From Escherichia coli (GTDB taxonomy: Bacteria; Pseudomonadota; Gammaproteobacteria; Enterobacterales; Enterobacteriaceae), in the NCBI RefSeq assembly GCF_051903065.1, contig NZ_CP178438.1: DNA of 64,000 nt; one strand, 5' to 3'. Position 1 is the first letter of the stretch; every line of letters begins with the position of its first letter. Under the pieces are notes generated by a model that saw only the letters and a program-made list of their open reading frames with translations, did not search any database and was not told the origin of the DNA. Positions 33,787 to 34,470 of the stretch are shown one piece after another. Both the position numbers and the translations under genes were made by a program.

Positions 33787-33885
33787 TGTACAAAATGATT
33801 AATGTGTTTTTGTCTGGCATAATTTGGGTTTTCAGCTTTAAGTAGTTAATATAATCATTCCTTACAAATGATTGAAGGGATGATT

Positions 33886-34380
33886 ATGCGTATCTTTGTT
33901 TTTTTTATATCTGCACTTTTATCTTTTAACTTGGCTGCGGAAGAGTGTAAGTTCAGCTTTAATGAGTCAGAATTAATCTCTTCTATAGGTATTGCACCAG
34001 TTAAGCAAGAGATAATAAAGGATGAAGGAATAACTAAGCGGCAATATGAATTCAGAAGAGAATTATCTTCTGAAGAAATGCTTAGTGATGACGCTGATGA
34101 AAAATATGAGCCGCAGTTTTATATATCTGTTTATAATCCATCATGCCCACAAAAGGTTATTGTTTGGTTTTTCAAAGACAATAAAAACACAATGGATTTA
34201 AGTAATGAGGTCCTTGCTGGTAGAGCGTTCAAGTATTTAACTGGTGTTAATGAAAGTATTTTTGAAAATAAAATGAAAAAGTTTTTAAAGGTACAGTCAT
34301 TTGAATCTTTTGATGAAAGGACAGATTCTAAATTTATAAAGAGTGGTGATATTTATTCCATTGATGTTCAACTCAGATAG
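33886..34380 (+). CDS. moron-encoded secreted/periplasmic protein (hypothetical)
   Basis: Start at internal ATG (MRIFVFFISALLSFNLAAEE.. signal-peptide-like); strongly AT-rich island within a GC-rich tail module; own TATAAT box upstream and hairpin downstream. Confidence 0.6.
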   Translation: MRIFVFFISALLSFNLAAEECKFSFNESELISSIGIAPVKQEIIKDEGITKRQYEFRRELSSEEMLSDDADEKYEPQFYISVYNPSCPQKVIVWFFKDNKNTMDLSNEVLAGRAFKYLTGVNESIFENKMKKFLKVQSFESFDERTDSKFIKSGDIYSIDVQLR

Positions 34381-34398
34381 TAATTAAAAATATTAGGT

Positions 34399-34457
34399 TC
34401 CCGCCACATCTTCTGCGATGTAAATAACTGACAAAGCAGATTTGGCGGGTTTTTTGT
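34399..34457 (+). terminator. terminator-like hairpin after the moron gene
   Basis: CCCGCCA ... TGGCGGG followed by TTTTTTG; loop is long, so confidence is modest. Confidence 0.4.
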
Positions 34458-34470
34458 ATCCGGAGTTTAT

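Follow-up and report, generated by a model that had tools for sequence, protein, structure and literature searches.

An AT-rich accessory gene for an exported protein in a cargo hotspot of the tail module of an SfV-like Escherichia coli prophage

We analysed a 64,000-nucleotide stretch of the Escherichia coli contig NZ_CP178438.1 (assembly GCF_051903065.1), referred to here as the window, and in particular an AT-rich island in the tail module of a prophage that it carries. Upstream of the island, on the plus strand, lies the gene for a 610-amino-acid tail tape-measure protein (31954–33786), identified from the annotation of identical E. coli and phage SKA5 records and from PF10145 on orthologues. 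It is followed on the same strand by a 99-nt leader of 28% guanine-plus-cytosine (GC) content, which may contain a promoter (33787–33885), by one cargo gene encoding a 164-amino-acid precursor (33886–34380; RefSeq WP_001219112.1, PHROG 8976) and, downstream, by the gene for a 442-amino-acid Mu gp43-like “DNA circularization/circulation” tail protein (34471–35799), recognised by PF07157 on orthologues. Open reading frames (ORFs) of 359, 182, 142 and 352 amino acids come next and are homologues of gp44/45/46/47. An earlier interpretation made without database searches, the sequence-only reading, had placed the island between a tape-measure gene and Mu-like baseplate genes; Pfam matches and annotation of identical or orthologous DNA agree (PF10145, DNA_circ_N (Mu gp43/N), GpP/gp44, Mu gp45, gp46 and Baseplate_J). 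The island is very probably an accessory cargo gene that encodes a functional exported protein.

The sequence-only reading called the segment 33800–34460 a moron, a term for extra DNA that is absent from the same position in close relatives, has a distinct composition and its own promoter and terminator, and is expressed from the prophage (Juhala/Hendrix; PMC3594210). The segment has 31.6% GC. In 200-nt windows, GC is 0.275–0.355 across 33800–34499 against 0.47–0.62 on either side, dropping from ~0.55 to 0.30 over 33787–34450. The remaining structural module (24–40 kb) averages 0.555 ± 0.035 GC over 400-nt windows and never falls below 0.438, and the island is its sole trough below 0.40, ~7 standard deviations out. 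The compositional contrast expected of a moron (GC 0.31 against 0.555 ± 0.035) recurs in all orthologous loci. An Rfam scan of the island gave no match. Other strongly AT-rich stretches occur in the window at ~3000–5100, ~49700–51050 and ~63100–63950 (minimum GC 0.29–0.32 in 400-nt windows). The left prophage junction, near the duplicated dusA fragment, falls within the first of these, and the other two are outside the prophage.

The island resides in an SfV/SfII-like prophage that has a Mu-type baseplate and dusA as its integration site. The prophage extends over ~4.9–43.1 kb as judged by mapping onto E. coli M8, which has a related mosaic prophage with a junction identical to that of the window. 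The same mapping locates opposed tail-fibre/assembly gene pairs beside a Pin-like recombinase at ~39800–41500, which suggests an invertible host-range segment; window and M8 diverge between 39769 and 40913.

The insertion is evident from a comparison of filled and empty junctions. Junction DNA was matched in 1076 of 5426 complete E. coli genomes, the whole 861-bp query in only 83 of them, and among sequenced phages the insert was found in Escherichia phage SKA5 only (99.5%). Matches to SfV, SfII and SfI are limited to the two flanks (~240 bp apart in total) and those to SfIV to the gp43 end. Without the insert, the two tail genes are 18–60 bp apart across these four phages (18 bp in SfII, 24 bp in SfIV), and a rho-independent terminator is annotated in the SfII junction. 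The tape-measure 3′ ends of E. coli GS04 and ETEC1730 are 99–100% identical to that of the window over 77–80 nt, yet the 60-nt junction of these strains is empty. With the site empty in SfV, SfII, SfI, SfIV, GS04 and ETEC1730, the island is extra DNA relative to its closest relatives, as had been proposed. Alignment of filled and empty sites puts the insert boundaries at ~33787–33810 and ~34443. We looked at the insert ends for a target-site duplication; their similarity is weak and none is claimed.

The island contains a single ORF (33868/33886–34380, plus strand), whose true start is the ATG at 33886, the start used by RefSeq and by all orthologues. A Shine-Dalgarno-like GAAGGG (33874–33879), invariant in nine allelic copies, lies 6 nt before it. 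The predicted signal peptide covers residues 1–18 (33886–33939), with the N-terminal sequence MRIFVFFISALLSFNLAA up to a predicted signal peptidase I cleavage site (LAA/EEC), after which the mature protein begins with EEC. Its hydrophobic core of 12–14 residues reaches a KD15 of 2.29, whereas the mature part peaks at 1.19. Most lineages start with M-R/K, nearly all have a small or aliphatic residue at −3 and Ala/Ser at −1, and the first three mature residues read x-[E/Q/A]-C in every lineage. The Sec and signal peptidase I assignment rests on sequence rules (charge, core, −3/−1) rather than on a trained predictor; most lineages, including that of the window, conform, and the exceptions, as cut by script, are two gene calls without a basic residue in the first five positions and an extended call (locus L016) that also breaks the −3/−1 rule. 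No lipobox (L-[AS]-[GA]-C) is present: the site reads NLAA/EEC here, and all members have the cysteine at +3. The mature part contains exactly two cysteines, C21 and C87, in every phage-borne member. These results bear out the ribosome-binding site, signal peptide and cysteine pair reported by the sequence-only reading. In the pathway that we propose, the precursor would be exported by Sec and cut after Ala18 to yield a mature protein of 146 residues (17 kDa, pI 4.9), an acidic α/β periplasmic protein with, probably, one Cys21–Cys87 disulfide.

An AlphaFold2 model built with 12 homologues has a predicted local distance difference test score (pLDDT) of 88 and a predicted template modelling score (pTM) of 0.79, and comprises seven strands and four to five helices. 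Pairwise ratios of nonsynonymous to synonymous substitution (dN/dS) are 0.04–0.18 where dS is unsaturated, resembling those of gp43, and point to a functional cargo gene under purifying selection.

Homology placed the protein in a family of its own. It matches PHROG 8976 over residues 1–164 of 164 (E = 2.8e-107), a family without an assigned function. Pfam and NCBIfam contain no relative, and the best match among PDB sequences, a mitochondrial protein at E = 0.003, was judged spurious; the sequence-only reading had likewise recognised no family. An exhaustive HMMER search found only 12 family members among 1.84 billion cluster representatives, and a word-indexed search recovered 16 clusters from Escherichia, Salmonella, Kosakonia, Atlantibacter and metagenomes. 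Further members came from Pantoea and Yersinia (AFDB) and from Pantoea phage AH07 (tblastn). A scan of GTDB genomes with peptide patterns confirmed no locus, and neither WP_001219112 nor phage SKA5 is mentioned in any paper in the literature searched. The structure-based search that the sequence-only reading had suggested was also run: Foldseek against AFDB50 returned, beyond the family, only uncharacterised proteins and lipoproteins at a template modelling (TM) score of ~0.5, and BFVD a single match (TM 0.65, 13% identity) with an automated name. No function is transferable by homology or fold.

One homologue is chromosomal and not phage-borne (loci L018/L019, 5001–5471). It is 34% identical and lacks the signal peptide and the first cysteine, a joint loss that fits a periplasmic disulfide in the phage-borne members. 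The copy may be a relic or may have been repurposed. It adjoins yqeI/yqeJ-like genes and lies 3′ of the terminator of a 1079-amino-acid pertactin-type autotransporter. We rejected a functional link to this autotransporter, because the copy follows the autotransporter’s own terminator and is without the signal peptide and first cysteine.

Synteny was examined in 4 close lineages, 3 distant ones (26–38% identity) and 35 IMG/VR contigs. All phage-borne copies checked sit directly between tape-measure and DNA_circ_N genes, and a gp43-like gene is immediately 3′ of the cargo gene in 47 of 49 loci tested. The cargo gene has a GC of 0.31–0.40 in every lineage and host genus checked. Because homologues down to 26–38% identity fill the same slot in several genera, we regard the gene as a long-standing optional occupant rather than a recent one-off insertion.

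The cargo alleles are mosaic relative to their flanks. Between L006 and L013 the tape measure is 93% and gp44 97% identical while the cargo is 60% identical, with a gp43 dS of 0.52 and a saturated cargo dS; the pattern is reversed between L013 and L059, where cargo dN is 0.09 against a gp43 dN of 0.28. The adjoining end of the tape measure is also variable. Its C-terminal ~100 residues (33487–33786) are 21–69% identical between lineages, compared with 77–96% elsewhere in the protein. Within the C-terminal motif, invariance is confined to a short D-V-G-Y core, and several lineages run on past the motif.

The tape-measure/gp43 junction of SfV-like prophages is a cargo hotspot, with at least six unrelated AT-rich cargo types in E. 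coli. To describe its states we sampled E. coli matches evenly (a 60-row spread sample) and opened 16 partial matches. The slot is empty in the SfV/SfII type, GS04, ETEC1730 and G1/2. The window, M8 and SKA5 carry the 164-amino-acid protein with a cleaved signal peptide (PHROG 8976). Elsewhere the slot holds a 176-amino-acid protein with an N-terminal membrane anchor (PHROG 5485; KE58, CX07, C11, SCU-118 and 2018-05-5CC), a 225-amino-acid lipoprotein with the lipobox LLGGC (PHROG 1353; GCUET01 and LF3-1), a 162-amino-acid secreted protein with a signal peptide (FDAARGOS_1265, AVS0753 and ECCHD184), a 125-amino-acid PH-domain protein without an export signal (PHROG 7115; G5) or a membrane-anchored OB-fold protein encoded on the minus strand (PHROG 8545; SCU-105 and EJN001). 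Five of the six cargo types are therefore exported or membrane proteins. All cargos have a GC of 0.34–0.41 and show no mutual similarity by BLASTP; hhalign between the two profiled families gave probabilities of 1.7% and 4.9%, and its alignments covered nothing beyond the signal peptides. The OB-fold cargo matches PHROG 8545, “superinfection exclusion Sie-like”, at E = 7e-33, a label that is an annotation and not a test. In line with the statement of the sequence-only reading that morons at this position commonly encode conversion, exclusion or host-interaction factors, the hotspot includes this Sie-like gene on the opposite strand.

The window’s gene is present in ~8% of modules in the spread sample. 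Twelve of the 15 unjoined single-flank records that were opened carry cargo, from which we extrapolate, without a census, that roughly half of the modules have some cargo. The 176-amino-acid anchored family (L026, 1930–2460; P0043–P0055) repeats the pattern of the window’s gene: it is small, its members in Escherichia, Lelliottia and Leclercia are 52–59% identical, and in one source it bears the name “secreted protein”. In an Atlantibacter prophage (L010, 7980–9778), two extra genes of 506 and 93 amino acids with no Pfam match lie between gp43 and gp44, so that this baseplate operon may have a further cargo site there. The moron known from papers on SfV-family phages is a different one, located in the region that separates the gene for the Q antiterminator from the lysis cassette.

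The sequence-only reading gave the island its own TATAAT box and a downstream hairpin plus T-run; both exist, and the reading of each as a signal of the insert needs correction. A TATAAT hexamer, a possible −10 box ending 30 nt 5′ of the start codon, is present at 33850–33855 (plus strand) and invariant in nine allelic copies; TATAAT occurs only 14 times in the 64 kb, counting both strands. It has no paired −35 hexamer, and a consensus scan found no two-hexamer sigma-70 site in the leader. A position weight matrix (PWM) scan of the leader scored at chance against shuffles (p = 0.40), its top site being CATAAT, 62 nt upstream, and not TATAAT. Two observations speak weakly for a promoter. Across the loci scanned, the top −10-like hexamer ends 19–35 nt before the ATG in 10 of 11, none of them individually significant and some falling inside tape-measure coding sequence. 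In the allele group L048/L050/L051, the leader shows 0–1 differences, against 4–4.7% in the tape-measure 3′ end and 5.1–5.7% in the cargo coding sequence. A point against separate transcription is that, in four distant lineages, the cargo gene starts 12–17 nt past the tape-measure stop or overlaps it; transcription together with the late tail operon is therefore no less likely than transcription from a promoter of its own.

The hairpin downstream of the gene (34400–34455, plus strand) is real and resembles an intrinsic terminator. Its arms CCCGCCA (34400–34406) and TGGCGGG (34443–34449) form a 7-bp GC-rich stem followed by T6 (34450–34455), and enclose a 36-nt loop with an inner stem; the fold has an energy of −22.3 kcal/mol (z = −2.3), and the stem is invariant. 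An equivalent terminator, ACCCGCTTCGGCGGG-T7, lies just before the gp43 ribosome-binding site in L004, L006, L010, L013 and L016, and another, CCCACTCCGGTGGG-AT6 (CCCAC-TCCG-GTGGG-AT6), in the cargo-free SfII, GS04 and ETEC1730. In the window’s lineage, the 36-nt loop with its inner stem replaces the tetraloop. Because an equivalent is present in all relatives, cargo-free ones included, the terminator belongs to the phage backbone and is not the insert’s own, and the cargo is inserted between the tape-measure stop and this backbone terminator. A terminator in the middle of the tail operon is also seen at L001 (1603–1641), L015 and L020, with or without cargo. Unless antitermination occurs, the backbone terminator would end any cargo transcript made in the lysogen; the closely related M8 prophage has an annotated Q-type antiterminator, which would presumably override it in lytic growth. 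The moron interpretation is therefore largely right, with three corrections: the terminator is a backbone feature, the promoter is unproven and the family has resided in the slot for a long time.

We propose that the island, which comparison with relatives marks as a moron, is a mobile accessory cassette within a recombination hotspot between the tape-measure and gp43 genes. The cargo would be transcribed at least by read-through from the late tail operon and possibly also, in the lysogen, from a weak promoter near 33850. In the periplasm, its product might interfere with envelope crossing by incoming phages, most plausibly those with the same contractile tail type, and the block would amount to superinfection exclusion after adsorption with no cytoplasmic target involved. 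From its context, we tentatively suggest that the cargo protein is a periplasmic factor that excludes superinfecting phages, because an exported product lies in a hotspot dominated by envelope proteins, one cargo of that hotspot carries a Sie-like label (PHROG 8545), the family is tied strictly to one tail type down to 26% identity, the adjacent tape-measure C-terminus is hypervariable and the HK97 gp15 moron provides a precedent (PMC3594210). A more far-reaching version, which we consider doubtful, would make the family a new class of soluble periplasmic exclusion factors that recognise the emerging contractile tail tip (the hypervariable tape-measure C-terminus, gp43 or the spike), and the slot an exchangeable “exclusion cassette” site at which each of at least six envelope proteins blocks a different entry route.

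Several results weigh against exclusion. PADLOC-DB 2.0 returned 0 families at E <= 1, and dN/dS gave no overall sign of diversifying selection. When the mature protein was fused to the C-terminal 120 residues of the tape measure and modelled with AlphaFold2 from a paired 12-row alignment, the tape-measure part stayed disordered and no interface appeared, in what is a crude and weak test, uninformative more than negative (pLDDT 30–54 for the tape-measure part, pTM 0.49 for the model). The missing −35 hexamer and chance-level promoter scores leave expression of the cargo in the lysogen uncertain, and distant relatives pack the gene against the tape-measure gene like an ordinary operon member.

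Some of the same evidence would suit a lysogenic-conversion or host-fitness factor that is not aimed at phages and helps the lysogen in an animal-gut niche, for example by neutralising an imported toxin (a colicin, or a contact-dependent or type VI secretion effector), by binding a molecule that comes from the host or by buffering stress on the envelope. Analogues are Bor and Lom of lambda and the prophage SodC. Cassette-like, AT-rich exported cargo is equally typical of conversion genes; Salmonella serovars and E. coli isolates of many animal hosts carry nearly the same gene; purifying selection fits a stable biochemical role; and no defence model was matched. We nevertheless think a host-fitness role somewhat unlikely: it would lead one to expect a wider spread, whereas the family is absent from other phage types and positions except for the one degraded copy without a signal peptide, and there is no fold or family link to toxin immunity proteins, adhesins or enzymes.

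A second alternative is a late-phase accessory protein whose gene lysogens keep silent and which is made in lytic growth alone, together with the tail proteins. From the periplasm it might stop superinfection or the re-adsorption of progeny to dying cells, or it might tune lysis. T5 Llp and T4 Sp and Imm act against superinfection or re-adsorption. The gene has the orientation of the late operon, the four distant lineages leave it 12–17 nt from the tape-measure stop or overlapping it, no convincing sigma-70 promoter was found, and the sole terminator lies 3′ of the gene and is the backbone one that a Q-type antiterminator would override. Set against this are a leader more conserved than the neighbouring coding DNA and a TATAAT that is invariant and suitably spaced from the ATG, which suggest a regulatory role in addition to mere read-through, a strong AT bias typical of separately controlled genes and the one slot cargo on the opposite strand, which needs its own promoter. 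We judge purely late expression unlikely. An integral or assembly component of the tail, whether structural protein or chaperone, is highly improbable in spite of the strict, deep synteny inside the tail module, since the plaque-forming SfV, SfII, SfI and SfIV do without the gene, the slot is empty in about half of the E. coli modules, unrelated proteins substitute in it, and a conserved cleavable signal peptide and cysteine pair direct the product out of the cytoplasm, where tails assemble.

As a single gene, the cargo is a fairly ordinary moron, an uncharacterised protein in a well-known kind of element; the census of the tape-measure/gp43 hotspot, with its bias to envelope proteins, is the more general and more useful result. 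If exclusion is correct, E. coli and Salmonella prophages have in this slot a compact collection of natural barriers that act against phages at the envelope and are easy to test, with relevance to host range in phage therapy and to how contractile tails cross the periplasm; if it is not, this is one more uncharacterised prophage accessory gene. As the predicted fold is confident and has no solved or annotated neighbour, a function for this protein would annotate the orphan family PHROG 8976.

Among known systems, HK97 gp15 is the product of a moron adjacent to the tape-measure gene and blocks the entry of DNA, an effect that depends on the tail of the incoming phage (PMC3594210). Like HK97 gene 15, the cargo gene is small and AT-biased, is an addition to a tail operon in which it neighbours the tape-measure gene, and is absent from close relatives; its product, too, probably acts in the envelope. 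The two have no detectable relationship: HK97 gp15 is an inner-membrane YebO-family protein shown to be expressed from the prophage, whereas the cargo protein is predicted to be a cleaved, soluble periplasmic α/β protein, is known from sequence alone and belongs to a contractile-tail phage, with its gene on the other side of the tape-measure gene. T5 Llp and phi80/N15 Cor are lipoproteins that block FhuA, and the periplasmic T4 Sp (“spackle”) inhibits the T4 gp5 lysozyme. The likeness to these lies in small size and export: they are phage proteins that protect a cell during infection or lysogeny, and their genes are often found beside the tail or receptor-binding genes to which they relate. 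The cargo protein showed no sequence or fold similarity to Llp, Cor or Sp and, unlike the lipoproteins Llp and Cor, has no lipobox. Its own family, PHROG 8976, has no assigned function, so membership explains nothing. The OB-fold protein of PHROG 8545 is unrelated in sequence, lies on the opposite strand and has an N-terminal anchor instead of a cleaved signal peptide, but it shares with the cargo protein the insertion site, the AT bias, a similar size and a predicted destination in the envelope.

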